The notes: generated by a model from the letters alone, not told the origin. Positions 10,275 to 64,000 are shown, counted from the first letter of the stretch. The stretch is 64,000 bases of DNA from an uncultured Dehalococcoides sp. (GCA_964628985.1 CAZVNJ010000011.1:2672-66671); one strand, 5' to 3'. Made by a program: numbers and translations.

Positions 10275-11425
10275 GCCTGCTACGCACCTCGGATCGCCCT
10301 CGCGCGCTCCTCGTCCTCGCGGACGGGCGGGCCTTCGAGGGCGTCGGCGTCGGCGCGGACCGCCGTTCCACGGGCGAGGTGGTCTTCAACACGTCGATGT
10401 CTGGCTACCAGGAGGCTCTGACTGACCCCTCTTACCGCGGCCAGATCCTCACCGCCACCTTCCCGCTGCAGGGCAATTACGGCATCGATGAGGGCACGGA
10501 CGAGAGCCGCGAGGTGCAGGTGCGCGGCTTCGTCGTGCGCGAGATGACCGACCTCCCCTCACACTGGCACTCACGGTCGACGCTCCACCAGTACCTCGCC
10601 GACCGCGGGATCCCCGGCATCGCCGAGGTGGACACGCGCGCCCTCACCCGCCACCTCCGCTCCCGCGGCGTGGTGATGGGGACGATCACGCGTGACGAGA
10701 CCATCGAGGAGGCGCTCGCACGGCTGCACCGCGAGCCGGACTATGCGGGCGTCGACTACGTGGCCACCGTCTCCACAGACGCGCCGTACCAGTTCCGCGA
10801 CCCGCGGGTCATCCTGGACCTCCCGGAGGACGGGAATCCTCCGCCGCACGTCGTGGTGCTGGACCTCGGGGTCAAGCGCAACATCATGCGGCTGCTGCGC
10901 CAGCGCGGCGCGGCTGTGACCGCCGTCCCGCATACCTCGACGGCCGAGGACATCCTGGCGTTGCGGCCGGACGGGGTCCTCATCTCTCCCGGACCAGGTG
11001 ACCCGATGCTGCTAGATCACGTGGTGGCCACAGCTCGCGGGCTCGTCGGGCGGACGCCGGTGATGGGGATCTGCCTCGGCCACCAGGTCATTGGCAGGCT
11101 CTTCGGCGCGGACACCTACAAATTGAAGTTCGGGCATCGAGGCGCGAACCACCCGGTGCGCGACGAGGCCACCGGCCGGGTGTACATCACAGCGCAGAAC
11201 CACGGGTTCGCCGTGGATGGGGACGGGCTGACATCGGACGTGATGGCGAGCCAGGTGCACCTGAACGACGGCACGGTCGAGGGGCTCCAGCACCGCTCGG
11301 AGCCGGTCTTCACCATCCAGTACCACGCCGAAGCCTCGCCGGGGCCCAACGACACCGAGTTCCTGTTCGACAGGTTCATGTCATCCGTACGATCGGGTGA
11401 CGCCGTCCGACACGTCCGCTCGTAG
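10271..11425 (+). CDS. carA: Carbamoyl-phosphate synthase small (glutaminase) subunit
   Basis: GTG 10271 overlaps the pyrC stop. The class-I glutamine amidotransferase motif GICLGHQ is present, and the N-terminal CPSase small-chain region is recognisable. Confidence 0.95.
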   Translation: MSLLRTSDRPRALLVLADGRAFEGVGVGADRRSTGEVVFNTSMSGYQEALTDPSYRGQILTATFPLQGNYGIDEGTDESREVQVRGFVVREMTDLPSHWHSRSTLHQYLADRGIPGIAEVDTRALTRHLRSRGVVMGTITRDETIEEALARLHREPDYAGVDYVATVSTDAPYQFRDPRVILDLPEDGNPPPHVVVLDLGVKRNIMRLLRQRGAAVTAVPHTSTAEDILALRPDGVLISPGPGDPMLLDHVVATARGLVGRTPVMGICLGHQVIGRLFGADTYKLKFGHRGANHPVRDEATGRVYITAQNHGFAVDGDGLTSDVMASQVHLNDGTVEGLQHRSEPVFTIQYHAEASPGPNDTEFLFDRFMSSVRSGDAVRHVRS

Positions 11426-17715: not shown

Positions 17716-18843
17716 CTACGAGACGAGCCACTCTGCGTGGCGGTCCAGCTGCAGGTAGCGGTCTGCCAGCGCACGCATCTCGAGGGACGTCGACCCGAGG
17801 AATGCGACGACCTCCACGTGCACACCATCCCCCTGCACGGACTCCACGGCGCGCGCGAAGTCTGCGTCACCGGAGACGATCGCGATGATGTCCACGCGCT
17901 CCGCGATGTGCACCATGTCGATCGCCATCTCGACGTCGAAGTTGCCCTTGATCGAGCCGTCCGCGAAGCGCTTCAGCGGCTTGGTAACGATGCGGTAGTC
18001 GTACGGCACGAACGGCGCGACGAATTTCTGCTGCTGCACCGGCTCACGTGGGTCGTCCGAGATGGGGCAGTACGCCGTCGCGCGCACCAGCTCGCGGCCC
18101 TCGCGCAACATGTCGAGCAGGCGCCCCATGTGGACCGTACGGCCATTCTCCACGCCGTACATGAGGTTGGGCACGTCTACGAAGACGGCAAGGCGCGGGC
18201 GATGGCCGCTCTTGTCCACCTGCTGCGCGAGGGTCAGCATTCCCGCTTTCAACTCAGCCAGGGTGACGCGCTGGGCCTCGACGAGGGCGCGCAGCCGCGC
18301 GATCTCCGTAGCGGTGCCGTCCGGGAGACCGGTCGACGGAATCGCCACCGGCGTGGGCATCGAGGGCTCAGCCACCGGGGGCACTGGCGTTTCGGCTGGC
18401 GTCTCGTCGGTACGGCGGCGGCGACGCGAGACGACCCGGGGGGCTGCCTCGGCAGGGGCCGCGGCGGCCTCAGCGGGGGCGGCGGTCTCGGACGCCTCGG
18501 CGGTCTCGGCGGCGCGTGTGCTCCGGCGACGCCGGACGGCGGGTGCCGTCTCGGCCGGCGCTGCTGTGGCGGTGGCCTCGGCGGGCGCCTCCGCGGCCGC
18601 GGCACGCGAGCGACGCGGTCGAGCGGGCCGTTCGGCCGTGTCTGGGTCTCCCGCCGGCTTACTGGCAGCGCGTCGTGGCTTGGCGGCTGGCTTCTCGGCA
18701 GCGGCCGGTTTCGCCGCAGGCTTGGCGGCCGCCGTGTCCGGGCGGCGGCGACCCGCGATCATCGACCCAGCGAGCGTCGAGCGCGTGCGCGAGGGCGTGC
18801 CTTCGTCGGCGGCGGCCAGCACCATCAACGTCTCGTGGCTCAT
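17716..18843 (-). CDS. NYN (LabA/DUF88-like, PIN-related) domain protein with long low-complexity N-terminus
   Basis: The C-terminal ~170 aa (LAVFVDVPNLMY...DVEMAIDM...IAIVSGDADFARAV...VEVVAF) match the NYN/LabA nuclease-like fold signature. The N-terminal ~170 aa are Ala/Pro/Arg/Glu/Thr low complexity, followed by a short coiled-coil-like segment. The start overlaps the mrp stop by 4 nt. Confidence 0.8.
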   Translation of the reverse strand: MSHETLMVLAAADEGTPSRTRSTLAGSMIAGRRRPDTAAAKPAAKPAAAEKPAAKPRRAASKPAGDPDTAERPARPRRSRAAAAEAPAEATATAAPAETAPAVRRRRSTRAAETAEASETAAPAEAAAAPAEAAPRVVSRRRRRTDETPAETPVPPVAEPSMPTPVAIPSTGLPDGTATEIARLRALVEAQRVTLAELKAGMLTLAQQVDKSGHRPRLAVFVDVPNLMYGVENGRTVHMGRLLDMLREGRELVRATAYCPISDDPREPVQQQKFVAPFVPYDYRIVTKPLKRFADGSIKGNFDVEMAIDMVHIAERVDIIAIVSGDADFARAVESVQGDGVHVEVVAFLGSTSLEMRALADRYLQLDRHAEWLVS

Positions 18844-19880
18844 CGGACACCTGCCTCACCGGCGAACTGAAGGACGGAACAACGGGCTGCCACCTGCTCT
18901 GCGAGGTGGACGAATGAGCGGGCGATCTCAGACTCCGGATGCCCGGCGACCACTGGGACGCCGGTGTCGCCGCCCTCGCGGATCCGCGCGTCAAGCGGCA
19001 ATTCGCCAAGAAACTCCAGGCCCAGGTCATCCGCCGCCTGGCGTGCACCGCCACGGCCGAAGATGTCGCTGCTCATGTTTTCCACGATGCCGAATACGGG
19101 GATCCCGAGACGGTCGAACATCGCAACCGCCTTCTGCGCGTCCTCGATCGACACTTTGGAGGGCGTGGAGACGATCACCGCACCGGCGATCAGCGCATCC
19201 TGCGCCATCGACATCGATGCGTCCGAGGTACCGGGCGGCAGGTCGATAATCAGGTAGTCGAGGTCCCCCCAGTCGACGTCATGCATCAACTGACGGACAC
19301 CGGTGCCGATCATCGGCCCGCGCCAGACGACGGGCGTCCCCTTCGGCAGCACGAACCCAATGGAGACGGCCTTGATCCCGAACGTCTCCACCGCCCGCAG
19401 CCCGTTCTGGCCGGAGGCTTGCAGCCCGCCTTCGATGCCAAGCATTGTCGGGATATTCGGGCCGGTAATGTCGGCGTCGAGGAGGCCGACGGTGGCGCCC
19501 AGGCGGGCGAGCGCGACGGCCAGGTTGACGGAGACACTGGACTTGCCGACGCCTCCCTTGTTGGAGGCCACAGCGATGACGTTGCGGACGCCCTCAATCT
19601 TCTTCGGGCCGTCCGGCCGGCTAGTGGTGCGGACCTCGGCGCCCCAGTCGATCTGGACATCGCTGACGCCAATGCCGCCCAGGGCATTGCGGACATCCCG
19701 GTCAATCGTCTCCCGCAGAGGACAGGCGGGCGTCGTCAGGACGACGGAGAACCGGACGGTGGAACCTTCGATGGAGAGGTCCCGGACCATATTCAGGGAA
19801 ACAATGTCGCGGTGGAGCTCCGGATCGTTCACGGTCCGGAGCGCCGCAAGTACGGCGTTCTGATCAGCCAAGTTGGCCAT
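18840..19880 (-). CDS. Mrp/NBP35/ApbC family Fe-S cluster carrier ATPase with N-terminal DUF59/MIP18-like domain
   Basis: Deviant Walker A SNKGGVGKS is present. The N-terminal VNDPELHRDIVSLNMVRDL...TTPACP is a DUF59-type domain. 346 aa. Confidence 0.92.
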   Translation of the reverse strand: MANLADQNAVLAALRTVNDPELHRDIVSLNMVRDLSIEGSTVRFSVVLTTPACPLRETIDRDVRNALGGIGVSDVQIDWGAEVRTTSRPDGPKKIEGVRNVIAVASNKGGVGKSSVSVNLAVALARLGATVGLLDADITGPNIPTMLGIEGGLQASGQNGLRAVETFGIKAVSIGFVLPKGTPVVWRGPMIGTGVRQLMHDVDWGDLDYLIIDLPPGTSDASMSMAQDALIAGAVIVSTPSKVSIEDAQKAVAMFDRLGIPVFGIVENMSSDIFGRGGARQAADDLGLEFLGELPLDARIREGGDTGVPVVAGHPESEIARSFVHLAEQVAARCSVLQFAGEAGVR

Positions 19881-51136: not shown

Positions 51137-51763
51137 CTAGACCTCCTGCCGGAACTCGAGCGCGCGCCCGAGCGTGACGTCATCAGCGTATTCGAGGTCG
51201 GCACCCGCTGGGAGGCCACGCGCGAGACGCGTGACGCGGATGCCGAGGGGACGGAGCAGCCGTCCGAGGTACATCGAGGTCGCCTCGCCCTCGAGGTTTG
51301 GGTTCGTCGCGACGATCACTTCGGTGATGTCGCGGTCGACATCGCGGATGCGGGCAAGGAGTTCGGCGATCTTCAGGTCTTCGGGGCCAACCCCGTCCGC
51401 CGGCGAGATGACGCCGTGCAGGACGTGGTAGAGCCCGTGGAATCCTCCCGTGCGCTCGATCGCGACCACATCCAGGGGTTCTTCGACGACGCAGATGATG
51501 GTGCGGTCGCGGCCCGTGTCGGCACAGATGCGACACGGATCCTCGGTGGTCACGTTCTGGCAGCGCCCGCAGAGCACGACAGATCGCTTGACCTCCATGA
51601 GGGCCTCGGCGAGGTCACGGGCATCTTCCTCGGAGGCACGCAGGATGTGATATGCGAGACGCTGAGCGCTCTTTGGGCCGATGCCGGGGAGGCGGTGGAA
51701 GGCATCGACGAGCCGCGCGATGGGCGTCGCGCTGCCGCCCGAGGGGTCGCGGAAGTCATTCAC
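51137..51763 (-). CDS. recR: Recombination protein RecR
   Basis: It has N-terminal HhH (LPGIGPKSAQRLA), a C4 zinc finger (CGRCQN...CRIC) and a Toprim region. The start overlaps the dnaX stop by 8 nt. Confidence 0.95.
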   Translation of the reverse strand: MNDFRDPSGGSATPIARLVDAFHRLPGIGPKSAQRLAYHILRASEEDARDLAEALMEVKRSVVLCGRCQNVTTEDPCRICADTGRDRTIICVVEEPLDVVAIERTGGFHGLYHVLHGVISPADGVGPEDLKIAELLARIRDVDRDITEVIVATNPNLEGEATSMYLGRLLRPLGIRVTRLARGLPAGADLEYADDVTLGRALEFRQEV

Positions 51764-53444
51764 TGATCGGCTCCGCGCCCTGCTTCAGCGCCTCCTCCAC
51801 GAGGTGGCTGCGCGCGGGCCGCGCCGTGGGCACATTCCCCGTATTCCCGAGTTCGGCCCATAGCACCACGCTCACCTGCACGGGGTGTCCCAGCGCCTCG
51901 GTGATGGCCGCCGTGAGCGTCTGCAGGACCCTGCCGCCGTCCTGGTCGCGCGCCTTGTCGACGTGCTGCTGAAAGGCGATGCCGACCTCCACGCGCTGGC
52001 CATCCGCCGACTTCGGATAGGCGATGGCGAAGAGCGCCCCCACAGGCCTCGAGTAGGCTCGCATGGCCTCCTGCACCTGGCTCCACCGCTCGCGGAGGGC
52101 CATCAGGTCGGCGGTAGCCTCCCCCCCGCCGGTCGGCGCGAACTCGCGCACTGGGGCAGCAGGCTGTGTCGGCGTGGCCGGAGCCGGCGGCGCGGTCTGT
52201 GCGGGCGCAGGACGAGTCGCCGCCGGCTTGGAAGAAGGGCGCGGCGCTGGGGCGCTCCGAGGCGGCGCGGGGGCCCGAGGCGCCTCAGCCGCCGAGGCGG
52301 CCGTCGCGCGGGATGCAACCGCTCGGGCTGGTGAGGGTGACGGGGCCGCGGGTGCGGCCGGCACCGCGGCGGTCGAGGTGCACAGCGTGGCGAACGCGAT
52401 TTCAGCCGGGAGCGAGTCGTACGCATCGCCCGCGAAGTCGACGGCAGAGAGCCCCTCGAGGGCTGCCACGATCTCGCCGATGTCCGCGTCGTCGGCAATC
52501 GCGTCCACCTCAGCGGCCTGTGCGTCGGCGAGCCCGAGGCGGTCGCCGGCCCCGGCCTTGACCATCAGCAGGCTGCGCAGCACCGCCACCGCCTCGCGCA
52601 GGAACGCGCGCACCTCCACGCCGTCATCGCGGGCCGCGGCGAGTAGTGCCAGACCGCCCCGCAGATCGTGCGTCACGGCCGCCCGCGCGAGGGCCGCGGC
52701 GCGGTCGTCGACAATGAGGCCGAGCCCGGCGCGCACGTCGTCCAGGGTCAGCGTCTTGCCATGGAAGGCGACGAGTTGGTCGAGCAGATTGACGGCGTCG
52801 CGGAGCGATCCGGTTGCCTGCCGCGCGATTAGCTCATATCCGCCAGGGGCGACCGTCAGCCCCTCGCCCTGCCCGATCGTCTCCAGGCGCTGGACTGCCG
52901 CAGTCACCGAGATACGACGCAGGTCGAAGCGCTGACAGCGCGAGAGGATGGTCGCCGGGATGCGGTTCGCCTCGGTGGTGGCAAGGATGAAGATGACGTG
53001 TGGAGGGGGCTCTTCGAGCGTCTTCAGCAGCGCATTGAACGCCGCGTCCGTCAGCATGTGCACCTCGTCGATGAGGTAGACCTTGTAGCGGCCCGCCGCC
53101 GGCGCGTATCCCGTGCCCTCGCGGAGGTCGCGGATCTCATCGATGCCACGGTTGGAGGCCGCGTCGAGCTCGATCAGGTCGATCGCGCGGCCCTCGTTGT
53201 AGGAGATGCACGACGGGCATTCCTCGCAGGGCTCCCCGGCCAGCGGGTTGGTGCAGTTGACCGCCTTCGCCAGGATGCGGCCGGTGGTGGTCTTACCCGT
53301 CCCTCGCGGCCCGCAGAACAAATAGGCGTGCGCAGGCGTCCCGGCGGCCACGGCATTACGCATTGTGGTCGTGACGGGATCCTGGCCGGCGACGTCGGCA
53401 AACCGACGCGGCCGCCACTTCCGGTAGAGGACTTCCTGGGCCAC
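51756..53444 (-). CDS. dnaX: DNA polymerase III subunit gamma/tau
   Basis: GTG start. Motifs are YRKWRPRRF, Walker A GPRGTGKTT, a zinc module C-x-x-C...C-x-x-C, and an SRC-type box. An Ala/Pro-rich linker and a C-terminal domain follow. Confidence 0.93.
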   Translation of the reverse strand: MAQEVLYRKWRPRRFADVAGQDPVTTTMRNAVAAGTPAHAYLFCGPRGTGKTTTGRILAKAVNCTNPLAGEPCEECPSCISYNEGRAIDLIELDAASNRGIDEIRDLREGTGYAPAAGRYKVYLIDEVHMLTDAAFNALLKTLEEPPPHVIFILATTEANRIPATILSRCQRFDLRRISVTAAVQRLETIGQGEGLTVAPGGYELIARQATGSLRDAVNLLDQLVAFHGKTLTLDDVRAGLGLIVDDRAAALARAAVTHDLRGGLALLAAARDDGVEVRAFLREAVAVLRSLLMVKAGAGDRLGLADAQAAEVDAIADDADIGEIVAALEGLSAVDFAGDAYDSLPAEIAFATLCTSTAAVPAAPAAPSPSPARAVASRATAASAAEAPRAPAPPRSAPAPRPSSKPAATRPAPAQTAPPAPATPTQPAAPVREFAPTGGGEATADLMALRERWSQVQEAMRAYSRPVGALFAIAYPKSADGQRVEVGIAFQQHVDKARDQDGGRVLQTLTAAITEALGHPVQVSVVLWAELGNTGNVPTARPARSHLVEEALKQGAEPISE

Positions 53445-53532
53445 TGGAGGGCTCCCACGGCACGGAGGGGAGTTCCGTACGCCGAAGGGCGAGTGTACCA
53501 GCGGCCCTCGGAGGGGTCAGGCTGAGCCGACG

Positions 53533-54045
53533 CTAGTCGGTATGTGCGGGGGCCCCGCGGCGGGACCGACCGTGGATGTGCGCCCCGAGGCGGCGCTCCT
53601 CGCGCTCCTCCATGTCACGGGCCTCGTCGGCGGTTTCATGGTCGTACCCGAGCAGGTGGAGGACGCCGTGCAGGACGATGTGTTGCACCTCTTCGTCGAG
53701 AGTGATCCGGGCAGCCTTTGCCTGGCGGGCCGCCGTCTCCAGCGAGATCGCGATGTCCCCGAGATAGCGGCCCTCTTCGTCCTCGAAGCCCTCCGGGACA
53801 GGCACGGCCTCACCCTCGTCGTAAGGAAACGAGAGGACGTCGGTGGGAGCGTCGACGCCACGGTGCTCGAGGTTCAAGGTGTGGAGGAATTCGTCCCCAG
53901 CGATGCGGAGTGCCAGGGCGGTGCCGGCGGGCTGGTCCTCATCGCGCAGCACCTCGCGCACGAGCCGCCGCAGCGCTACGAGGTCAACCAGCCCGCGCTG
54001 GGGTGACGCGACGCGGATGTCCAGCGGGTATCGGGCGGCAGGCAC
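53533..54045 (-). CDS. ybeY: rRNA maturation endoribonuclease YbeY
   Basis: The metal-binding motif HGVLHLLGYDH is present. 170 aa. Confidence 0.9.
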   Translation of the reverse strand: MPAARYPLDIRVASPQRGLVDLVALRRLVREVLRDEDQPAGTALALRIAGDEFLHTLNLEHRGVDAPTDVLSFPYDEGEAVPVPEGFEDEEGRYLGDIAISLETAARQAKAARITLDEEVQHIVLHGVLHLLGYDHETADEARDMEEREERRLGAHIHGRSRRGAPAHTD

Positions 54046-54059
54046 GCCTCGGGCCTCGC

Positions 54060-55523
54060 CTACAGGAGCGCGGCGGCAGCGTCCTGCGCGGCGTTGATGA
54101 GCGGCGACGGGTCGACGCCGAAGAACAGCACACCCACGGCAGCCGCGGCGATCACGAACTGGACGCCACCCGAGGCGCGCAACTGCGTCGTCTCCTTGGG
54201 CTCATCGAGAAGCATCGTACGCACCCACCGCAGGTAGTAGAAGGCGGAAATCGCCGTGTTCAGGACAGCGAGGGCGACGAGGGCGAGCAGCCAGCGCTCA
54301 CCCGCCTGCACCGCCGAGTTGAACACATAGACCTTCGCGATAAAGCCCGCCGTGGGCGGGATCCCGGTCAGCGAGACGAGGCAAAGCGAGAGCACGACCG
54401 CCGCCACCGGCGAACGCTTCACGAGGCCAGCGAAGTCCTCGATCTGCTCGGAGCCGAGGCGGTCGGAGACGAAGCTCACCACGACGAAGGCGCCCACGTT
54501 TGTGGCGGCGTAGGTGCCAAGGAAGAACAGGACCGCGCTCGGACCCGCCGTGCTACCCGCGGCGACTGCCGCGAGGCCGACGGCGATGTTCCCGGCCTGC
54601 GCAATCGAGGAGTAGCCGAGCAGCCGCTTGGCATTCGTCTGGAGGAGGGCGCCGGTGTTACCTACGATCATCGAGAGCGCGGCCAGTGCGCCGAACATCA
54701 TGGCCCAGTCCTGCGCGATGATCGTGTCCCCGCCGCCGAGGCCCGTGTAGAAGAGCCGCAGCGCGACCGCGAAGCCCGCCGCCTTCGAGGCGACCGAGAG
54801 GAAGGTTGCTACGAGCGTCGGAGCGCCCTCGTAGACATCGGGCGCCCAGGCATGCGACGGCGCCATCGCCATCTTGAAGCCGATGCCGACGGCGACCAGG
54901 ACGAACGCCAGCATGAGCGGCAGCCGCTGCGCCTCCGGGCCGGTCGCGACCCACGCCGCGATGCCGTCGAGCGAGGTCGTCCCTGCCATGCCGAACAGGA
55001 AGGCAAAGCCGTAGAGGAGGATGGCGGCTGCCACCGCCCCGGTCAGGAGATATTTCAGTCCGGCCTCGGAGGAGCGGTCGTTCCGCGTGACACCGGCGAG
55101 GATGAACTGCGAGATGGAGGCGGTCTCCAGCGCGACGAAGATGGTGATCAGATCGTTCGCCTGCGCGAGCAGCATCATCGAGCCCGCGGAGACCAGCAGA
55201 AGCGCATAGAACTCGGCCGCTTGATCGATGGTGGCCGCCCATTCGCGCGCCGCCAGGGCCACCGCCAGCAACACGGCGCCGATGAGGAACCCGAGGTAGA
55301 TCGAGAAGGCGTCCACACGTACTGCGCCACCAAGCGCGCCTGCCTCAGCACCCAGCACGGCGTGCGTCAGCGTCCAAACCAGAGCAATCAGCGCAGCGAA
55401 GACAGTGATACCCCAGATGGTGGCACGGCGGCCGCGCAGCAGGTCAGCGCCCAGGACGGCGCCCGCGCCGGCGTAACAGACCAGGGCAGGCCCGATGGCG
55501 TGAAGGTGGTCGAAGAAGGTCAC
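54060..55523 (-). CDS. nuoN: NADH-quinone oxidoreductase subunit N
   Basis: 487-aa polytopic antiporter-like subunit, last in the nuo string. Its start overlaps the nuoM stop by 4 nt. Confidence 0.9.
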   Translation of the reverse strand: MTFFDHLHAIGPALVCYAGAGAVLGADLLRGRRATIWGITVFAALIALVWTLTHAVLGAEAGALGGAVRVDAFSIYLGFLIGAVLLAVALAAREWAATIDQAAEFYALLLVSAGSMMLLAQANDLITIFVALETASISQFILAGVTRNDRSSEAGLKYLLTGAVAAAILLYGFAFLFGMAGTTSLDGIAAWVATGPEAQRLPLMLAFVLVAVGIGFKMAMAPSHAWAPDVYEGAPTLVATFLSVASKAAGFAVALRLFYTGLGGGDTIIAQDWAMMFGALAALSMIVGNTGALLQTNAKRLLGYSSIAQAGNIAVGLAAVAAGSTAGPSAVLFFLGTYAATNVGAFVVVSFVSDRLGSEQIEDFAGLVKRSPVAAVVLSLCLVSLTGIPPTAGFIAKVYVFNSAVQAGERWLLALVALAVLNTAISAFYYLRWVRTMLLDEPKETTQLRASGGVQFVIAAAAVGVLFFGVDPSPLINAAQDAAAALL

Positions 55524-56992
55524 GAGGCCGCCTCGACAATCTGCGCAATCGGCTCAATGCCCAGGCGCACTGTGTCGGTAAGGACGGCGGGCCAGATGCC
55601 GACCCCGATGATCGCGACTACCAGCGCCGCCATCGCCGTCAGCTCCCACCACTGCCGGGCATCCGTCAGGTCATGGAAGTCGTGCGTCTTCGGCCCGTGC
55701 AGGATGCGCTCGACCGTCCACAGGATGTAGCCCGCGGAGAGCACGACGCCGAAGACGGCGGCCATGGTGGCAGCGGGGTGTGGACCGATGGAGCCGAGGA
55801 AGACGGTGATCTCCGCGACGAACCCGGACATCGCCGGGAGCCCAAGTGAGGCCAGCCCGGCGATGATGAACACCGTACCGATCAGTGGCATGTGGTGCAT
55901 CAGCCCTCGGAGTCGGGCGATCTCGCGAGTGTGGGTGCGGTCATAGATCATCCCGACCATCACGAAGAGCAGGCCGGTGATGCAGCCGTGGGTGAACATC
56001 TGCATGGCGGCGCCGGAGAGCCCGACCGGACCGAGGGCCGATACGCCAAGCAACACGTACCCCATGTGCGAAACCGATGAGTAGGCAACGAGTCGCTTCA
56101 GGTCGGTCTGCCGCAACGTGATCACGGCGCCCCAGATCACGGAGAAGCCGGCGATGGTCGCGATCACCTTCGAGAAGTCGTGGGCCTGGTCTGGCATCAG
56201 CGGAAGCACGATGCGCAGGATGCCGTAGCCGCCCATCTTGAGCAGGACACCCGCCAGCATGACCGACACGGCCGTGGGAGCGTCCGTGTGCGCGTCGGGC
56301 AGCCAGGTGTGGAGCGGGAAGACGGGCAACTTCACAAGGAAGGCCAGCATGATCGCCCAGAACACGATCGCCATCGGGACGATGGTCTCTTGCGGCGGCG
56401 TCTGCGTAAGGGTCGCGATGTCGAACGTGCCCGCTCCGAAGCCGATCACCATGAACCCGACGAGCATCAGCGCCGAGCCCGCCAGGGTGTAGAGCAGGAA
56501 CTTGGTCGCGCTGTAGAGGCGGCGGCCCGACCCCCACTGGCTGATCAGGAAGAACATGGGCAGCAGTTCCAGTTCCCAGAAGAGGAAGAACTGGATGAGG
56601 TCCAGCGAGATGAACACGCCCGCCACAGCCGACTCGAGGAAGAGCAGCCACGCGAAGTACTGTTTTGGCTTGACGTCGATGTTCCACGAGACGAGCACCG
56701 CGACCACCGAGAGCAACCCAAGCAGTACCACGAGCGGGGCCGAAAGGCCGTCCACACCGACGACGTACTGCACCGAGAAGCCGGTATCGGCAGCCTTGAT
56801 CCACTCGAAGCGGTCGACGAACTGATACCCCTCAACGCCGCGGTCGAAGACGACGTACATCACGATCGACACGGCAAAGGCCAGCGTGCTGAAGGCGAGC
56901 GCGATGACCTTCGCCTCGGACTGACGGTGGGCCGGCAGGGCGATCGCGAGAAGCGCCCCGGCAAGCGGCAGGAGGAGGAACAGCGTCAGCAT
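55520..56992 (-). CDS. nuoM: NADH-quinone oxidoreductase subunit M
   Basis: 490-aa antiporter-like subunit with the conserved HTWLPDAH segment. Overlaps the neighbouring genes. Confidence 0.92.
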   Translation of the reverse strand: MLTLFLLLPLAGALLAIALPAHRQSEAKVIALAFSTLAFAVSIVMYVVFDRGVEGYQFVDRFEWIKAADTGFSVQYVVGVDGLSAPLVVLLGLLSVVAVLVSWNIDVKPKQYFAWLLFLESAVAGVFISLDLIQFFLFWELELLPMFFLISQWGSGRRLYSATKFLLYTLAGSALMLVGFMVIGFGAGTFDIATLTQTPPQETIVPMAIVFWAIMLAFLVKLPVFPLHTWLPDAHTDAPTAVSVMLAGVLLKMGGYGILRIVLPLMPDQAHDFSKVIATIAGFSVIWGAVITLRQTDLKRLVAYSSVSHMGYVLLGVSALGPVGLSGAAMQMFTHGCITGLLFVMVGMIYDRTHTREIARLRGLMHHMPLIGTVFIIAGLASLGLPAMSGFVAEITVFLGSIGPHPAATMAAVFGVVLSAGYILWTVERILHGPKTHDFHDLTDARQWWELTAMAALVVAIIGVGIWPAVLTDTVRLGIEPIAQIVEAAS

Positions 56993-59007
56993 TACGGCAT
57001 CAGCCGATCGACGAGCCCGGGCGACACACGTTCGATGAGGCCACCTGACAGCGCCAGGAGAGTCCCGGCCGCGGCCACGACGCCGACCATCATGACCGAC
57101 ATATTCGCCTGCACCTGTCCGGTCTGAGCACGACGGAGGATGTCGCCCGCGATCCGAGTGGCGAAGCCAGCGCCATTCACCGCGCCGTCCACGAGGTACT
57201 TGTCCACCAGGGCAGCGCCGCGGCCGATGCCGTGCAACACGCCTCGGACCATACCGGTCTCGGCGATTTCGTTCACAAAGTAGAGACGCTGCACCACCAT
57301 AGGCAGCGGCCCGAGGCGGCCGCGGATCACAGAAGAGGACGGCATCTGGGCGTAGTAGATCGCCGCCGCAGCCGCGATCCCACCGAGCGCCGCCACCGTC
57401 GAAGCGACGAGCACCACCGGCTCGATTTCGAAGTGGAAGTGTCGGAGCGACGGGTCCAGCGCGCCCTCGACCAGTTCGCCGAAGTAACCGCTCGGGGCGA
57501 TCAGGCCGAAGAAGATCGCGGGGATGGAGAGCATGATCAGCGGGAACGTCATCGACCTCGGCGACTCGTGGAGGCCGCCATGGCCACCTCCGTGGGCGTC
57601 CGCCGAGGTGGAGGCGTGTGCGTCCTGCGCGCCATGCGCGTCGTGGCCGGACCCGTGGTCCTCGGCTGGCGCGCCGCCCTTGTACTCGCCGAAGAACGTC
57701 ATGAAGATCGCGCGGAACATGTAGAGCGCGGTCATGAACGCGACCACGGTGGCGACGACGAAGAGGAACTTATCGTGCTTCCAGGCGTCGAGCAGGATCT
57801 CGTCCTTCGACCAGAACCCGGCCAACGGGAAGACACCCGAGAGCGACAGCGCGCCGATCACGAAGGTGATGAACGTAATCGGCATGTGTTTACGCAGCCC
57901 GCCCATGAGAGGCATCTCGAACGTATTCGTCGCGTGGCTGACCGAGCCAGCGCCTTGGAACAGCAGCGACTTGAAGAAGGCATGCGTGAAGAGGTGGAAC
58001 ATCGCCGCGGGGTACCCCCCGAGCCCGAGCGCCATGACCATGTAGCCCAGCTGCGAGATCGTGGAGTAGGCCAGCACCCGCTTGATGTCGGTGGCGACGA
58101 TGCCCATCGTCGCGGCGAAGATCGCAGTGAAGCCGCCGGTGTAGGCGATCAGCATCTGGATGCCGCCGGGCGCTGCTTCCACCGCGGGGAAGAAGCGCGC
58201 GAGCAGGTACACGCCCGCCGCCACCATCGTGGCCGAGTGGACGATCGAGGAAACCGGCGTCGGCCCCTCCATCGCGTCCGGTAGCCAGAAGTGCAATGGG
58301 AACTGCGCCGACTTGCCCGCGGCCCCGGAGAGCAGGCCGACGACGAAGCCCGCGACGACCGCCCTCGGGAGGTGGTGGACGGCCTCGTTGATCTCGAAGA
58401 TGTCGAAGGTGCCCGTCTTCGACCAGATGAGGATCAGGGCGAGCATGAAGCCAAAGTCGCCGAAGCGTGTGACGATGAACGCCTTCTTCGCGGCCGCCGC
58501 CGCGCTCGGCTTATGGAACCAGAAGCCGATGAGCAGGTACGAGGTCAGGCCCACCAGTTCCCAGTGCACGAACAATTGGAGCAGGCTGGAGGACATCACG
58601 AGGCCCAGCATGGCCGCGGTAAACAGGGACATGAACGCGAAGAAGCGCGCGTAGCCCCCGTCACCTGCCATGTAGCCGGTCGAATAGATCTGCACGAGCA
58701 ACGAAATCGAAGTGACGACGAAGAGCATCATCGCGCTCAGGCCGTCGAGCCGGATCCCCAGTTCCACCTGGAACTCGAACAAGGACATCCAGTGGTGCGA
58801 TGCGAAGCCGACGGACTCACCGTCGTGGCCGGAGACAGTGTCCAGTGCCCAGACCGCGAGGAGCCACGCCACGAAGACGGCCCCGATGGTGACGCGCCCA
58901 GCCAGCAGCGGGCGCGAGCGCAGGAATCCGACGATCGCGAGGAAGGACGCGACCGGCGCGAAGTAGATGGCCCAGACGGCCGCCTCGGGGATGTCAGGGA
59001 GCAGCAT
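56992..59007 (-). CDS. nuoL: NADH-quinone oxidoreductase subunit L
   Basis: 671-aa antiporter-like subunit with the conserved FWLPDAMEGPTP segment and the long C-terminal extension characteristic of NuoL. It contains a His/Asp-rich loop (aa 441-485). Confidence 0.92.
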   Translation of the reverse strand: MLLPDIPEAAVWAIYFAPVASFLAIVGFLRSRPLLAGRVTIGAVFVAWLLAVWALDTVSGHDGESVGFASHHWMSLFEFQVELGIRLDGLSAMMLFVVTSISLLVQIYSTGYMAGDGGYARFFAFMSLFTAAMLGLVMSSSLLQLFVHWELVGLTSYLLIGFWFHKPSAAAAAKKAFIVTRFGDFGFMLALILIWSKTGTFDIFEINEAVHHLPRAVVAGFVVGLLSGAAGKSAQFPLHFWLPDAMEGPTPVSSIVHSATMVAAGVYLLARFFPAVEAAPGGIQMLIAYTGGFTAIFAATMGIVATDIKRVLAYSTISQLGYMVMALGLGGYPAAMFHLFTHAFFKSLLFQGAGSVSHATNTFEMPLMGGLRKHMPITFITFVIGALSLSGVFPLAGFWSKDEILLDAWKHDKFLFVVATVVAFMTALYMFRAIFMTFFGEYKGGAPAEDHGSGHDAHGAQDAHASTSADAHGGGHGGLHESPRSMTFPLIMLSIPAIFFGLIAPSGYFGELVEGALDPSLRHFHFEIEPVVLVASTVAALGGIAAAAAIYYAQMPSSSVIRGRLGPLPMVVQRLYFVNEIAETGMVRGVLHGIGRGAALVDKYLVDGAVNGAGFATRIAGDILRRAQTGQVQANMSVMMVGVVAAAGTLLALSGGLIERVSPGLVDRLMP

Positions 59008-59195
59008 TAGATTTTGTTCAGTACCTCGCGTGCCACGTGCGTCTTGCCATCAGGCACCCAGATCTCGCGTGGGTCCTTCATCCCGCCCACTTCAACCGGC
59101 GGCACGATGCGCACCGAGAGTGCCTCCTGATTGAAGACCTCCCGCCACATCAGCGCGGCGTAGCCGTCCGCGACATCCATGAACTTCACCCACAT
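59007..59195 (-). CDS. Small soluble hypothetical protein (62 aa) embedded between nuoK and nuoL, DUF2007-like by eye
   Basis: The ATG lies 19 nt after the nuoK TAG. Its TAA overlaps the nuoL ATG (TAATG). The product MWVKFMDVADGYAALMWREVFNQEALSVRIVPPVEVGGMKDPREIWVPDGKTHVAREVLNKI has no hydrophobic helix. Confidence 0.5.
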   Translation of the reverse strand: MWVKFMDVADGYAALMWREVFNQEALSVRIVPPVEVGGMKDPREIWVPDGKTHVAREVLNKI

Positions 59196-59214
59196 CGGCG
59201 TCGCCCTTTGCCCG

Positions 59215-59571
59215 CTACCAGCGCATCAGGTTGACGCGGTCGAGGTCGACAGTCTCCCGACGGCGGTAGACCAGCACCGCCATCGCCAGCGCCACGGCTG
59301 CCTCGGCCGCCGCGACGGTGAGCACGAACACGACGAACACGTGCCCGTCCAGCGGCGCGTCTCCCGTCCGGTCGAAGGAGGACGAGAAGCGGGAGAAGGC
59401 CAGTACCGTCAGGTTCACAGCATTCAGCATCAGCTCGACACCCATCAGCACGGCGACCGCGTTCCGCTTCGAGAGCGCGACCATCGTCCCGATCGCGAAG
59501 ATCGTCCCGGCAAGGCCGAGATAATGCGCGAGCGTGATGCTCAGGTCCTCGATGGCCGGGATCGGGGGCAT
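59215..59571 (-). CDS. nuoK: NADH-quinone oxidoreductase subunit K
   Basis: ATG 59571 is in frame in ORF 59215-59757 and overlaps the nuoJ TGA. The 118-aa three-helix protein carries the conserved GVELMLNAVN segment. Confidence 0.9.
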   Translation of the reverse strand: MPPIPAIEDLSITLAHYLGLAGTIFAIGTMVALSKRNAVAVLMGVELMLNAVNLTVLAFSRFSSSFDRTGDAPLDGHVFVVFVLTVAAAEAAVALAMAVLVYRRRETVDLDRVNLMRW

Positions 59572-60098
59572 CAGGAGTCCTCCCCGACGCGCCGCCGCTC
59601 CTGCACGAGCACAATCGCGCCGAGCAGCGCGAACAGCAGGAGCACCGATGCGACCTCGAAGGCCAGGATGTACTTGCCGAGCAGCAGGTCGCCGATCGCG
59701 GAGACGGTCGTGGTGAAGTCGCTGGTGCCCAACGCCTCGCCTTTCCGCTCGTCCCACTCGGTGTCGATGGCGACGAACCCGATCATGCTGGCGAGTCCGC
59801 CCGCGGCGAGCATCGCCGGAATCACGTACAGCGTCGAGCCATTGTTCCGGGAGGCGAGCGGCGTCAGCATCACGGCGAAGACCATGAGGACTGAGATGGA
59901 CCCCGCATAGATCAGGATCTGCGCCACGGCGATGAAGTCCGCGCTCAGCGTCAGGAAGAGCCCGGCCATTCCGAGGAAGGACAGCACGAGGAACGCGAGG
60001 GCGTGCAGCAGGTTCCGGGCGACGAAGACGAGCAGCGCGGAAGCCACCGTCACCCCGGACAGCGCGAAGAACGCCAGGATGATGCCCGGGGACTCCAC
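59571..60098 (-). CDS. nuoJ: NADH-quinone oxidoreductase subunit J
   Basis: 175-aa hydrophobic protein (GTG start) with the NuoJ pattern (AVAQILIYAGSISVLMVFAVML). It starts immediately after the nuoH stop codon. Confidence 0.88.
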   Translation of the reverse strand: MESPGIILAFFALSGVTVASALLVFVARNLLHALAFLVLSFLGMAGLFLTLSADFIAVAQILIYAGSISVLMVFAVMLTPLASRNNGSTLYVIPAMLAAGGLASMIGFVAIDTEWDERKGEALGTSDFTTTVSAIGDLLLGKYILAFEVASVLLLFALLGAIVLVQERRRVGEDS

Positions 60099-61520
60099 CT
60101 AGCCGCCTCGCATCTTCTGAGCGGCCTTCAGGCCGCCGAGCGTCGTCGCCATGACGGGGGGCTGCGCAGCCACCTCAGGCGCGTAGCCAAGCGCGCGCGC
60201 CCAGCGTCGCACCATCTCCACCGTCAGGCCCAGGTTGAGCATCGCGAACGCCGCCAATGGGAAGAGCGCGGGGGCCTCCCAACGCGCGAAGATCGAGGCC
60301 TCCACCGCGACGAGCAGCACCTGCGCGACGGACAGCGGGATCAAGAACTTCCACGCGTAGCCCATCAACTGGTCCAGGCGGAAGCGCGGCAGCGTTCCGC
60401 GCAGCCAGACAAAGAAGAAGTACACGAGGCCGGTCTTCGTGGCGAGGATGAGGTAGCCGGGGATCCATGTCTCCAGCCCAAACATCGTGTAGCCGCCGAG
60501 GAAGAACGTGGACATGAGCGCGCCGACGAGGATCGCGTTGCCGAGCTCCACGCCCATGAAGAGCCCGGCTTTCATGCCGGAGTATTCCGTATAGAAGCCC
60601 GCCACGATCTCGGACTCCGCCTCGCCGATGTCGTTCGGCGTGCGGTTGATCTCCGCGGTGCTGGAGAACAAGAAGGTGAACGCGGCGAAGGGCAGTAGGA
60701 GCAGTAGCCAGACGTTGTAGTTCGCCTGCCACGCGACAATCGACGAGAGCTGCATCGAGCCAGTCATCAGGACGACGGCGAGAAGCGCGAGCGAGATCGG
60801 GATCTCGTACGAGATCATCATGGCCACGGTGCGCATCGCGCCCAGAAGCGAGTAGTGGTTGTTCGACGACCAGCCGGCGAGGAACACGCCCAGGACGCCA
60901 AGCGATGAGATCGCAATGACGTAGAGGATGCCGACGTTCAGGTCGAGGAACGACATCTTCTCCGCCCACGGGACGGGGCCCCAGCCGAGGATGGCCGGGA
61001 TGAAGATGATCACCGGCGGCGCGAAGTACAGGAGGCGGTCCGCGGCGCGCGGGATCACCACTTCTTTCTGCATCAACTTCACGGCGTCCGCGATCGGCTG
61101 GAACAGGCCGAACGGCCCCGTCCGGTTCGGGCCCTGGCGGATCTGGAACTTCGCCAGGACGCGGCGTTCCACCCATGACCCGATCAAGAGCCAGCCGCCT
61201 ACGACCGAGAGGATGCCGAGGGCACCCAGCAGGGCCGTGGTCACGTACGGCACCGCCGGGTGGAAGCCCTCGTCCTGCATCCAACCGCGGAGGCCGCTGG
61301 TGATGTTCCCCAGGTCGCGGATGTCGTACCAGTGGCCGTCGAGTCGCCCGTCGACGACGACGTAGGCGATCGCGAGATTGGCGAGCAGGAAGCCGCCGAG
61401 GAGGAGGAGCGCGAAGCCCTTCCACTCCTTGCTCACGCCCATGAACCGCTGGAGCAGCGAGCGATGCTCTGCGATCTGCCGCAGCATCGGCGTGGCGGGA
61501 CGCATCGGCTCGTCGCTCAT
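60099..61520 (-). CDS. nuoH: NADH-quinone oxidoreductase subunit H, with N- and C-terminal extensions
   Basis: The core motif is ERRVLAKFQIRQGPNRTGPFGLFQPIADAVKL, with PRFRLDQLM later. ATG 61520 overlaps the nuoD TGA (ATGA). A shorter form could start at ATG 61280. Confidence 0.9.
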   Translation of the reverse strand: MSDEPMRPATPMLRQIAEHRSLLQRFMGVSKEWKGFALLLLGGFLLANLAIAYVVVDGRLDGHWYDIRDLGNITSGLRGWMQDEGFHPAVPYVTTALLGALGILSVVGGWLLIGSWVERRVLAKFQIRQGPNRTGPFGLFQPIADAVKLMQKEVVIPRAADRLLYFAPPVIIFIPAILGWGPVPWAEKMSFLDLNVGILYVIAISSLGVLGVFLAGWSSNNHYSLLGAMRTVAMMISYEIPISLALLAVVLMTGSMQLSSIVAWQANYNVWLLLLLPFAAFTFLFSSTAEINRTPNDIGEAESEIVAGFYTEYSGMKAGLFMGVELGNAILVGALMSTFFLGGYTMFGLETWIPGYLILATKTGLVYFFFVWLRGTLPRFRLDQLMGYAWKFLIPLSVAQVLLVAVEASIFARWEAPALFPLAAFAMLNLGLTVEMVRRWARALGYAPEVAAQPPVMATTLGGLKAAQKMRGG

Positions 61521-62620
61521 CGGTCGATCTCCCCGACCACGATGTCGATCGAGCCGAGCGTCACGACGGCGTCCGGGAGCGAGGCGCCGCGCGCCAGTTC
61601 GCGGAGGAGCGAGAGGTTGATGAGCGACGGTGCGCGGAGGTGGAAGCGGTACGGCGCCGGGCCGCCATCTGAGACCAGGTAGAACCCCGTCTCACCCCGC
61701 GGGCCTTCCACGCGGGCATAGACCTCGCCCACGGGAGGACGGAGCGCCAGCGGGATGTCGTTCTTGTGCGGCCCGGGCGGGATCTGAGCGATGGCCTGCT
61801 TCAGGATGCGGCTGGACTCGCGCGTCTCCATCATCCGGCACATGAAGCGGTCGTATACGTCGCCTCGCGTCCCCACCGGGACATCGAAGTCGAAACGGTC
61901 ATAGACGCAGTACGGCTCGGCCTTGCGGAGGTCCCACGGGACACCCGAGCCACGCAGGGCCGGACCGACGAGCGAGCCGTTGATGGCGTCCTCGGGCGTG
62001 ATCACGCCGATGCCGCGCGTGCGGGCCAGGAAGATCTCGTTGTCAGCGAGCAACTCCATGTACTCATCGATGCGGCCCGGCAGTTCCGCGACCAATTCGT
62101 TCAGCGCCGGCCAGAACTCCGCCGGCGGTTCGAACGAGACGCCCCCAGCGCGCATGTAGTTCGTCGTGAGCCGCGCGCCGCAGGTCATCTCGAACAGGTC
62201 GAGGATCTTCTCGCGCTCGCGGAACATGTAGAGCAGCGGCGTCTGCCACGCCCCTGCGTCCGACACCAACGTGCCATTCGCCATCGCGTGACTGGCGATG
62301 CGCTGCAGTTCCGCGAAAATCACGCGCAGGTAGGACGCCCGCTCGGGCACCTCGATGCCCGCCAGGCGCTCGATGCCGAGCGCGAGACCGAGGTTGCCGG
62401 ACATCGCGGCCAGGTAGTCAGCGCGGTCCGTGAACGGGATGTTCTGCGTGTAGGTGCGCTCCTCGGCCAGTTTCTCCATCGAGCGGTGGAGGTAGCCCAC
62501 GATCATGTCGAGGTCGCGGATGACCTCGCCATCCATCACGACGCGGACGCGGAACACCCCATGCGTGGAGGGGTGCTGCGGCCCGATGTTGAGGACGTAT
62601 GGCTCGGCGGTGGAGTTCAC
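61517..62620 (-). CDS. nuoD: NADH-quinone oxidoreductase subunit D
   Basis: 367-aa ORF (GTG start) with N-terminal NIGPQHPSTHGV and a C-terminal ...LGSIDIVVGEIDR typical of NuoD/49-kDa subunits. Confidence 0.94.
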   Translation of the reverse strand: MNSTAEPYVLNIGPQHPSTHGVFRVRVVMDGEVIRDLDMIVGYLHRSMEKLAEERTYTQNIPFTDRADYLAAMSGNLGLALGIERLAGIEVPERASYLRVIFAELQRIASHAMANGTLVSDAGAWQTPLLYMFREREKILDLFEMTCGARLTTNYMRAGGVSFEPPAEFWPALNELVAELPGRIDEYMELLADNEIFLARTRGIGVITPEDAINGSLVGPALRGSGVPWDLRKAEPYCVYDRFDFDVPVGTRGDVYDRFMCRMMETRESSRILKQAIAQIPPGPHKNDIPLALRPPVGEVYARVEGPRGETGFYLVSDGGPAPYRFHLRAPSLINLSLLRELARGASLPDAVVTLGSIDIVVGEIDR

Positions 62621-62622
62621 GG

Positions 62623-63243
62623 CTAGTGCCCCCCGTGCGGGCCGCCGTGCGTGCCCAGGTGTTCGGTGCTGGTCTCTCGGTCGCCCGTCACTCGAATGTT
62701 GCCCGCGTTCAGCATCCGGTCGGGGGTTTCTTTGTCCTCGAACGGGAATCGGGCGAGGCCGGGGTTCACGTCCTTACCAGTGATCTGACCGAGGCCAAGG
62801 AAGTCTTTGCGCAGCGGGAAGGCGGGGTACCCCTCCCAGAGGAAGAGGCGGCGAAGATCCGGGTGACCGTCGAAACGGATCCCCATGAGGTCATAGACCT
62901 CGCGCTCCTGCAGCAGCGCCCCCTTGTAGACGGGGTAGGCACTCGGCAGGACGGGGTTCTCGTGATCCTCAACGATCGCCTTCACGACGACCTGGTGGTT
63001 CAAGTCCAGCGACTGCAGGTGGTAGACGACTTCGAAGTGGGTGTGGCGGTCCACGCTGGTCAGATTGGAGAGCTGGGCCGCGTCGAAGGCCTCGGAGTCA
63101 TGGAGCCAGCGAAGGACGTCCAACACCCGGTCTGAACGCACCTCGACCCACTCGACATGGCGGCCGATGACCGCGCCGCGCACGGAGACGTCAAGGGCGT
63201 CTGCGACTCGGTGCCCGACCAACTGGTTCGGCCCGGCCGGCAT
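62623..63243 (-). CDS. nuoC: NADH-quinone oxidoreductase subunit C
   Basis: ATG 63243 is in frame in ORF 62623-63363 and overlaps the nuoA TGA. The 30-kDa subunit signature is EREVYDLMGIRFDGHPDLRRLFL...PLRKDF. A ~55-aa Cys-free tail follows. Confidence 0.88.
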   Translation of the reverse strand: MPAGPNQLVGHRVADALDVSVRGAVIGRHVEWVEVRSDRVLDVLRWLHDSEAFDAAQLSNLTSVDRHTHFEVVYHLQSLDLNHQVVVKAIVEDHENPVLPSAYPVYKGALLQEREVYDLMGIRFDGHPDLRRLFLWEGYPAFPLRKDFLGLGQITGKDVNPGLARFPFEDKETPDRMLNAGNIRVTGDRETSTEHLGTHGGPHGGH

Positions 63244-63617
63244 CAGCGCCACTCCAGCGCGCGCTTGCGCCAGGCGTAGGCCAGTCCGAACACAAGGATC
63301 CCCATGAAGAGTGCCGCCTTGAAGAGCGTCTCCAGGGGCATGGCGGCGTGGTTCACCGCCCACGGGTAAAGGAAGATCACCTCAACGTCGAAAATCACGA
63401 AGCCCAGTGCGAAGAGGTAGTAGCGGGCGTTGAATTGGCCCCAGGACGAGCCCTCGGCCTCCACGCCGCACTCATAGGTGGCGTTCTTCACCGGGTCCGG
63501 GTGGCTGGGCCTGACCTTGATCAGACCGAAGAGGAACGAGATCGCGAGGGGGAGCACCGGAAATCCGAGTGCAAAGATGAGGAGGACGGCGACGCGACCG
63601 AATTGCTCCGGGATCAC
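63243..63617 (-). CDS. nuoA: NADH-quinone oxidoreductase subunit A
   Basis: 124-aa three-helix protein (GTG start, AAAGGA SD) with the conserved YECG...F-x-x-RYY...FVIFDVE..FLYPW motif. Confidence 0.9.
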   Translation of the reverse strand: MIPEQFGRVAVLLIFALGFPVLPLAISFLFGLIKVRPSHPDPVKNATYECGVEAEGSSWGQFNARYYLFALGFVIFDVEVIFLYPWAVNHAAMPLETLFKAALFMGILVFGLAYAWRKRALEWR

Positions 63618-64000
63618 GCGGCGTCCTTTCGAGGCCGTCCGTCAGTGCCCCGCGCTCTCGCGGCAAGCCGTAACGGAGCCGTCTGCGTCCGTCAGGGAGT
63701 CTGACCGAGACCGCGCGGAACGTAACACCCTCCCTAATGGGGTGCAATGAATCCGGGAGATCCGGTCCCCGTGAGGGTGGGAATCCGCCAGCCGGCGTTT
63801 CCGGGCGGGGGGCGCCGTTCACATTCGTATTGACCCGCTGACGGAGGCCCGACTAGAGTGCGCGCGGTCGCGGCGGGCGCGCACCGGTCCACTGTCTCCT
63901 CAGTGCGGCACGCCTCGCTACGTCGCTTCCACGACGGCCCTTGCCGGGCCGCCGCTGTCCATCGAGTGGTGGAGGCGTCCTGCCTCCCGAGCGACAGAAA

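Follow-up and report, generated by a model that had tools for sequence, protein, structure and literature searches.

Gene content and organization of the operon

A 64,000-nucleotide (nt) stretch of DNA from an uncultured Dehalococcoides sp. (GCA_964628985.1, CAZVNJ010000011.1:2672-66671), referred to here as the window, contains an operon for complex I that encodes no iron-sulfur (Fe-S) subunit. The operon occupies positions 54060-63617 of the minus strand and is composed of ten tightly packed genes in the order nuoA-C-D-H-J-K-orf62-L-M-N (Table 1). This order had been proposed in an initial annotation made from the sequence alone; it is borne out by Pfam, with E-values between 1e-25 and 1e-105 for the nine Nuo proteins, and NCBIfam agrees. 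All seven membrane subunits of complex I, NuoA, H, J, K, L, M, and N, are assigned by both databases. Together with NuoC and NuoD, they make up exactly the cofactor-free subunits of the enzyme, and the operon displays a split layout in which the Fe-S subunits are left out.

The genes are joined with little or no spacing. The TGA of nuoA and the ATG of nuoC have the A at 63243 in common, 2 nt separate the nuoC stop codon from the GTG of nuoD, the last 4 nt of nuoD are also the first of nuoH (61517-61520), and the nuoH stop codon directly adjoins the nuoJ start (60099/60098). Further downstream, the nuoJ TGA shares one base with the nuoK ATG (59571), a gap of 19 nt lies between nuoK and orf62, and the orf62 TAA shares one base with the nuoL ATG (59007). 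The nuoL and nuoM genes have 1 nt in common, and nuoM and nuoN overlap by 4 nt. The initial annotation had described the junctions as tight, and they are as close as it reported or closer. Its coordinates hold overall, except for those of nuoC and nuoK, which are corrected in Table 1. With nuoA and nuoC overlapping and nuoH adjoining nuoJ, there is no space for nuoB or nuoI, nor for any additional gene.

Table 1. Genes and flanking features of the operon, in the direction of transcription (aa, amino acids)
Feature	Coordinates	Strand	Description
nuoA, first gene	63243..63617	-	124 aa, GTG start; Pfam Oxidored_q4, E=2.8e-32
nuoC	62623..63243	-	206 aa; Pfam Complex1_30kDa, E=2.4e-37, residues 34-149
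nuoD	61517..62620	-	367 aa; Pfam Complex1_49kDa, E=2.1e-91; top NCBIfam model NF008974 (366-aa NuoD type)
nuoH	60099..61520	-	473 aa; Pfam NADHdh, E=3.3e-105
nuoJ	59571..60098	-	175 aa; Pfam Oxidored_q3, E=6.7e-33
nuoK	59215..59571	-	118 aa; Pfam Oxidored_q2, E=1.2e-25
orf62	59007..59195	-	62 aa; no Pfam or NCBIfam family
nuoL	56992..59007	-	671 aa; Pfam Proton_antipo_N and Proton_antipo_M; NCBIfam NF005141, 614 bits, exceeds cut-off
nuoM	55520..56992	-	490 aa; Pfam Proton_antipo_M; TIGR01972, 524 bits
nuoN, final nuo gene	54060..55523	-	487 aa; Pfam Proton_antipo_M; TIGR01770, 369 bits, exceeds cut-off
Region upstream of nuoA	63618..64000	-	About 380 nt, intergenic/leader; no credible open reading frame
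ybeY and dnaX, downstream neighbours	51756..54045	-	14 nt past nuoN; outside the complex

Absence of Fe-S subunits from the window

Neither NuoB nor NuoI is detected in the 64-kb window. The best tblastn matches have E-values of 0.09 with the E. coli queries and 0.015 with Thermus Nqo6 and Nqo9, the Nqo6 query being identical to the PDB chain. A six-frame scan of the window returned zero matches for GxCxxxGG and for CxxCxxCxxxCP. One CCxxE and two GCPP matches are present, all in open reading frames (ORFs) of 54-97 codons outside the operon. The 41 other ORFs of the window match 76 Pfam families, of which the 25 most-matched are housekeeping families (CPSase, pyrimidine synthesis, MetRS, RF1, RelA/SpoT, etc.). 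NuoE, NuoF, and NuoG are found neither in the operon, nor among these 25 families, nor in the upstream flank of L003, a related contig whose NuoD is 97% identical to that of the window.

NuoC and orf62 contain no cysteine, and NuoD contains three scattered ones. The translations and motif scans confirm two points of the initial annotation, that no protein of the operon carries an Fe-S motif and that NuoC is free of cysteine. Its proposal that NuoB, NuoI, and NuoEFG are missing by design rather than through a gap is also supported, and an assembly fault is not the cause. The relatives described below show the same gene arrangement.

Conservation of the layout across Dehalococcoidia

A one-genome-per-species scan identified 296 loci with a close NuoD relative, and the best 80 of the 296 were examined. 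These are labelled as Dehalococcoidia or Chloroflexota metagenome-assembled genomes (MAGs), two of the labels being evidently wrong, and originate from lakes, groundwater, ocean, sponges, and soil, with G+C contents of 31-74%. The order A-C-D-H-J-K-orf62-L-M-N is identical in all 80, and no NuoB or NuoI homologue lies within about 10 kb of the operon in any of them. NuoD is the best-conserved subunit, with 76-98% identity to the window protein. The identical gene order across such a range of G+C content and NuoD identity shows that a working enzyme has long been under purifying selection.

The layout is standard for a large group of Dehalococcoidia and is not peculiar to one genome. The operon is also found on complete chromosomes, among them OZ252250.1, OZ252046.1, OZ253555.1, OZ242017.1, OY839116.1, and OZ241365.1, and on the 577-kb contig ERZ27280278 k141_524080. 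Exact look-ups with the NuoA, NuoD, and NuoM sequences of the window returned no match, so that the collection searched does not include the genome of the window itself. The initial annotation had considered the operon unusual. It is not rare, being invariant in the 80 relatives and also recorded for Acidobacteria. The same annotation had raised the possibility that nuoB and nuoI lie just past the window. The closest relatives instead contain unrelated lipid/steroid-type genes upstream and ybeY-dnaX-recR downstream. It had further asked whether the order might be the ordinary one of the lineage, with NuoB and NuoI supplied from a known partner locus; the order is indeed ordinary, but the partner locus was not found in the lineage.

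Features of the Nuo proteins

An alignment shows that NuoD retains His38, Tyr87, and Asp139 (numbering of Thermus Nqo4), which in Thermus complex I bind the head group of the quinone. The hydrogenase CxxC motifs are absent from both ends of the protein, and with them the NiFe-binding cysteines. An identity as a group 4 [NiFe] hydrogenase or Mbx was rejected on this basis. NuoD scores 306 bits on Complex1_49kDa, as compared with 129-188 bits for the PDB entries of MbhL, HycE, and the L chain of 6u8y ('NADH dehydrogenase subunit D'). At the position of Nqo4 His169, the histidine beside cluster N2 in canonical enzymes, NuoD contains a threonine ('GARLTTNY' vs 'GQRFHHNY'). The aligned Aquifex NuoCD chain also has no equivalent of His169.

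Residues of the proton pump are kept as well. They were checked individually in NuoK and NuoM. NuoK contains both membrane glutamates ('GVELMLN' and 'AAAEAAV') when aligned with solved NuoK/NdhE chains. In an alignment to Paracoccus NuoM, NuoM retains the glutamate of transmembrane helix (TM) 5, the lysines of TM7 and TM8, and the glutamate of TM12. Judged from their sequences, the proteins look functional and a non-redox role appears unlikely. The retention of the quinone-site and pump residues disfavours a function that does not involve electron transfer. A quinone pocket under selection would make little sense without N2, suggesting that NuoB, and the NuoI that feeds it, should exist elsewhere in the genome.

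Several subunits possess extra segments. The core of NuoH (residues 87-410) aligns with residues 5-330 of Thermus Nqo8 and is extended by about 85 residues at the N terminus (residues 1-86), which include one extra hydrophobic segment, and by about 60 residues at the C terminus (411-473). The N-terminal part frequently falls beyond the tblastn match in more distant relatives. NuoL contains a His-rich insert after the antiporter core, AEDHGSGHDAHGAQDAHASTSADAHGGGHGGLHE (about 57550-57660, minus strand). The C-terminal tail of NuoC, EHLGTHGGPHGGH (about 62626-62670), is rich in histidine and glycine and is variable, frequently lying beyond the tblastn match in relatives. The NuoL insert and the NuoC tail may be metal-binding or simply of low complexity.

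Stand-alone nuoB-nuoI loci in other lineages

Genes for NuoB and NuoI that stand apart from the rest of complex I occur widely in metagenomes. Metagenome DNA was searched for the NuoB motif DVYxPGCPP followed, 87-107 codons on, by CxxCxxCxxxCP. At least 120 contigs contain a NuoB gene and then a 4Fe-4S dicluster gene in this arrangement, and tblastn identifies clear nuoB-nuoI pairs on 103 of them. Another nuo gene is present on only 1 of 120 such contigs and absent from the other 119, and the NuoF motif is found on none. All 11 of the B-I loci with at least 4 kb on either side are free of other nuo genes. By source names, the largest group of B-I loci belongs to Armatimonadota/Chthonomonadales; another abundant group contains a Bacillus-like NuoB and adjoins moaA.

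The two subunits can also be fused. P0203, a 336-residue NuoB-NuoI fusion, is encoded at 10001-11011 of the 72-kb contig L087 (ENA contig_48986, ERZ25039541). A gene for a 90-residue ferredoxin lies immediately before it, and no further nuo gene is found within 10 kb. Fusions of 331-345 residues are present on about ten independent contigs, and the fusion looks real because of this recurrence. The relatives of P0203 include both fused and unfused forms, one of which is named Acidobacteria.

A third arrangement is the nuoB-nuoI-nuoB triplet, in which a single NuoI is surrounded by two NuoB paralogues and further nuo genes are absent from the vicinity (L118, L136, L140, L148, L159, L162, and L184). 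The triplet loci have a G+C content of 64-70%, and most of their source names point to Acidobacteriota. The single NuoI may be used by two Q-modules.

Other searches for NuoB returned ordinary operons or other lineages. The 120 best matches listed are solely from Deinococcota for Thermus Nqo6 and solely Acidobacteria-like relatives for P0203. A search of NuoB representatives yielded 150, many of which are frameshifted long-read artefacts. Three of these proteins, P0272, P0131, and P0308, belong to ordinary operons. P0308, from a NuoB cluster with one member labelled 'Chloroflexota bacterium', was rejected as the NuoB of this lineage in view of its standard 14-gene operon and Thermoleophilia-like relatives. 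It is encoded on L082 (GCA_964393105.1, CAYMSM010000072.1), and its nearest named NuoB relatives are from Thermoleophilia (Actinomycetota), which suggests horizontal transfer or mis-binning. Among 60 of the 169 plasmid matches listed for a tblastn search with Nqo6, there is no Chloroflexi record. A scan of viral contigs returned one ordinary A-B-C locus, and the supplements of two SAR202 studies have no nuoB or nuoI entries.

The orf62 protein

All 73 loci that extend to this position contain the small gene between nuoK and nuoL, with a length of 62 codons in each of the 72 complete copies. The sequence is 69-100% identical in most relatives and 52-60% identical in two relatives with 31% G+C. 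Sixteen positions are invariant among 28 diverse members: the start Met, W2, G11, Y12, A14, W17, P32, P33, M39, W46, P48, K51, H53, E57, N60, and K61. This invariance spans genomes from 31% to 74% G+C. The gene is also called in public assemblies, and its exact sequence is indexed in 92 blocks of a public assembly collection. By its conservation, orf62 qualifies as a real protein under strong constraint.

No match to orf62 was found among Pfam, NCBIfam, or PDB sequences, and no membrane segment is predicted. AlphaFold models from the single sequence show a beta-alpha-beta-beta-alpha arrangement that is only suggestive, one of five models being confident (predicted local distance difference test score 87.6). 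A Foldseek search with the model returned nothing significant; the best hit has an E-value of 0.028, and the hits are generic small alpha/beta domains (a type III secretion system ring motif, ACT, PII, and 2HFV). The last of these, the nuclear magnetic resonance structure of RPA1041, is a DUF2007 member.

The idea that orf62 substitutes for NuoB or NuoI was rejected, as the protein has no cysteine and only 62 residues. From the overlap of its stop codon with the nuoL start, orf62 is predicted to be translationally coupled to nuoL. It is probably a small soluble cytoplasmic protein made together with NuoL, and a candidate accessory or assembly protein of the membrane arm.

Flanking regions

The segment upstream of nuoA matches no Rfam family, and no site resembling a promoter is present on the strand of the operon. 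Rfam and promoter/terminator scans of the operon itself returned nothing exceeding chance. The initial annotation had regarded this segment as non-coding, in agreement with near-identical contigs, in which an intergenic region of about 390 nt is followed by a divergent ChsH2-like gene. In L003 and in L219, a 577-kb contig, the genes upstream of the operon are divergent and encode ChsH2-like, thiolase, dehydratase, and short-chain dehydrogenase proteins. At 1-9000 of L003 and 1-5200 of L219, this divergent set comprises ChsH2-like/thiolase pairs in repeated copies, a dehydratase of the MaoC type, and two genes for short-chain dehydrogenases. The cluster looks like a set of genes for the degradation of steroid or lipid side chains.

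Downstream, the operon is followed by ybeY-dnaX-recR in the closest relatives, and Pfam YbeY and DNA_pol3_delta2 are found in L219. In most relatives that extend far enough, nuoN is followed by ybeY and dnaX in the same orientation; about ten relatives have ybeY on the opposite strand.

At 18840-19880 (minus strand), the window encodes an Fe-S cluster carrier ATPase of the Mrp/NUBPL type (FeS_assembly_P and ParA). A homologue with 52% identity is encoded at 5-853 of a metagenome contig, L173, where it is immediately followed by moaA and a nuoB-nuoI pair that stands alone. In mitochondria, NUBPL/Ind1 is responsible for inserting Fe-S clusters into complex I.

Comparison with known systems

In Thermus, all 14 core genes of complex I are contained in one operon, in the order 7-6-5-4-2-1-3-8-9-... 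The Thermus thermophilus enzyme (Nqo1-16; PDB 4HEA) is the closest solved relative of both NuoD (365 bits) and NuoH (244 bits), and the two systems share the quinone-site residues and the membrane-arm set A/H/J/K/L/M/N. However, genes for NuoB, E, F, G, and I form no part of the operon described here, and its NuoD is about 40 residues shorter than Nqo4 and differs at His169.

The best NCBIfam models of NuoD and NuoA, NF008974 and NF005839, are what we take to be Bacillus/Firmicutes types. The classical operon of this kind, nuoABCDHIJKLMN, encodes an 11-subunit complex I-like enzyme without NuoEFG (Moparthi & Hagerhall 2011, PMC3144371), and it resembles the present operon in having no N-module genes. 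It differs in that nuoB is located between nuoA and nuoC and nuoI between nuoH and nuoJ. Neither gene occupies these positions here or in the 80 relatives, and orf62 is placed between nuoK and nuoL. Since nuoB and nuoI were looked for in the operon and are absent from it, it belongs to neither the classical 11-gene nor the 14-gene type.

Complexes encoded at several loci offer another comparison. The subunits of cyanobacterial NDH-1 are distributed in this manner, but ndhK (the counterpart of nuoB) and ndhI are retained in the ndhC-K-J and ndhA-I-G-E operons, unlike here. Nitrospina gracilis NUO-2 is also one complex from several loci, with scattered nuo clusters and a lone nuoB2; in contrast to the present system, its nuoI lies within the main cluster, nuoACHIJKLMN, and its nuoD has been moved out (PMC3578206). 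MAGs of peatland Acidobacteria contain 'one or more nuoACDHJKLMN operons', one per MAG also with nuoEFG (bioRxiv 10.1101/197269, Hausmann et al.). These operons have the same nine nuo genes as the one described here and lack nuoB and nuoI, which are evidently encoded elsewhere. They differ in belonging to another phylum and in the nuoEFG genes of one operon per genome; an orf62-like gene is unmentioned, and the arrangement is noted in passing only and not studied (10.1101/197269). What appears to be new is the universality of the layout across a broad Dehalococcoidia clade, together with the embedded orf62. The system is not of a new kind; the enzyme itself is ordinary, and its gene layout is under-described. 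The layout is of use for annotation and offers a modest lead on modular assembly.

Probable encoding of complex I at separate loci

We consider it probable that the operon encodes the cofactor-free portion of a normal complex I, with NuoB and NuoI supplied by a separate locus that is most likely a B-I pair. The operon would provide the membrane arm (NuoA, H, J, K, L, M, and N) and the Q-module scaffold (NuoC and NuoD). NuoB, with cluster N2, and NuoI, with clusters N6a and N6b, would be made from the other locus and would join during assembly. The most likely source would be a stand-alone nuoB-nuoI pair like those of Armatimonadota and Acidobacteriota. Electrons would flow from a donor, which would be a NuoEFG module encoded separately or a protein of the ferredoxin type, through NuoI and N2 of NuoB to a quinone at the NuoD/NuoH interface, and the reduction of quinone would drive proton translocation via NuoH/A/J/K and NuoL/M/N. 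The gene content and order, their conservation, the retained catalytic and pump residues, and the occurrence of stand-alone B-I loci in other phyla are shown here; we infer that this lineage has a B-I locus, which donor supplies the electrons, and what orf62 does.

Several observations weigh against this interpretation. No genome of the lineage yielded a partner nuoB/nuoI locus in homologue searches whose 120 best matches each did not reach the lineage, and we infer that the two subunits are present in these genomes. Synteny by tblastx tied none of the B-I contigs to Dehalococcoidia genomes, and tetranucleotide distance was not discriminating, with Armatimonadota and Thermoleophilia-like loci as close as true relatives. 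In addition, the threonine at the His169 position of NuoD may mean that the environment of N2 differs from that of canonical enzymes.

The initial annotation had offered three explanations: supply in trans, an alternative isoform of the membrane arm, and a function other than electron transfer. Supply in trans is favoured here. A related scenario is compatible with the evidence, though we consider it rather unlikely: a second nuo operon, of 14 or 11 genes or of the form ACD-EFG-HJKLMN, would lend its NuoB and NuoI, and perhaps NuoEFG, to the present arm and Q-module as an alternative isoform. The Acidobacteria genomes with several nuoACDHJKLMN operons, one with nuoEFG, apparently share NuoB and NuoI in this way (10.1101/197269), Chloroflexus contains two nuo clusters (PMC3150298), and the B-I-B triplets of L118, L140, L159, L162, and L184 fit one NuoI for two Q-modules. 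However, no second nuo locus of the lineage was seen, and the sole 'Chloroflexota'-labelled 14-gene operon recovered, that of L082, has Thermoleophilia-like relatives and is unlinked to these genomes. Such sharing is in any case a variant of supply in trans and no true alternative.

The third explanation is disfavoured by the retained quinone-site and pump residues. In its explicit form, it describes a machine that has dispensed with NuoB and NuoI and, built on the complex I scaffold, might exchange cations for protons in the manner of Mrp antiporters or act as a transducer of conformational change. The absence of the two subunits from the operon and its surroundings in 80 genomes, the lack of any encoded Fe-S motif, and the replacement of the N2-adjacent histidine would all fit such a machine. 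Yet the quinone-binding His, Tyr, and Asp of NuoD would be pointless without N2, NuoD is the most conserved subunit of all, and lineages with the same operon layout contain stand-alone B-I genes. To our knowledge, NuoC and NuoD have no role without NuoB. No Mrp-specific subunit family, such as MrpE/F/G, is present among the operon matches or the 25 most-matched families of the window, and an identity as an Mrp antiporter was rejected for lack of such a family among the latter. We regard a non-redox machine as very improbable. A decaying remnant, in which a former 11-gene operon has lost nuoB and nuoI and is on its way to pseudogenisation, is scarcely credible: nothing beyond the absence of these two genes speaks for it, whereas none of the ten reading frames is disrupted and their junctions are coupled, the order and sequences are conserved across the whole range of G+C content, and the 92 assembly blocks preserve orf62 exactly.

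Fe-S subunits are encoded apart from cofactor-free ones in at least three phyla, and B-I fusions and B-I-B triplets occur in addition, which points to modular assembly or separate regulation. More speculatively, several phyla might sort their complex I genes by cofactor, a portable and sometimes fused nuoB-nuoI 'plug' might be shared among several membrane-arm/Q-module isoforms or combined with different donors such as ferredoxin or NuoEFG, and orf62 might be a new subunit or assembly factor; we advance these ideas only tentatively. As a near-invariant 62-residue protein of no known family within a complex I operon, orf62 is a cheap target for study. Completeness tools that expect nuoB and nuoI within the operon will call complex I incomplete in a large group of environmentally abundant Dehalococcoidia, which comprises SAR202-like marine, lake, sponge, and soil members. 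The nuoACDHJKLMN layout is to be interpreted as a split arrangement and not as a broken one.

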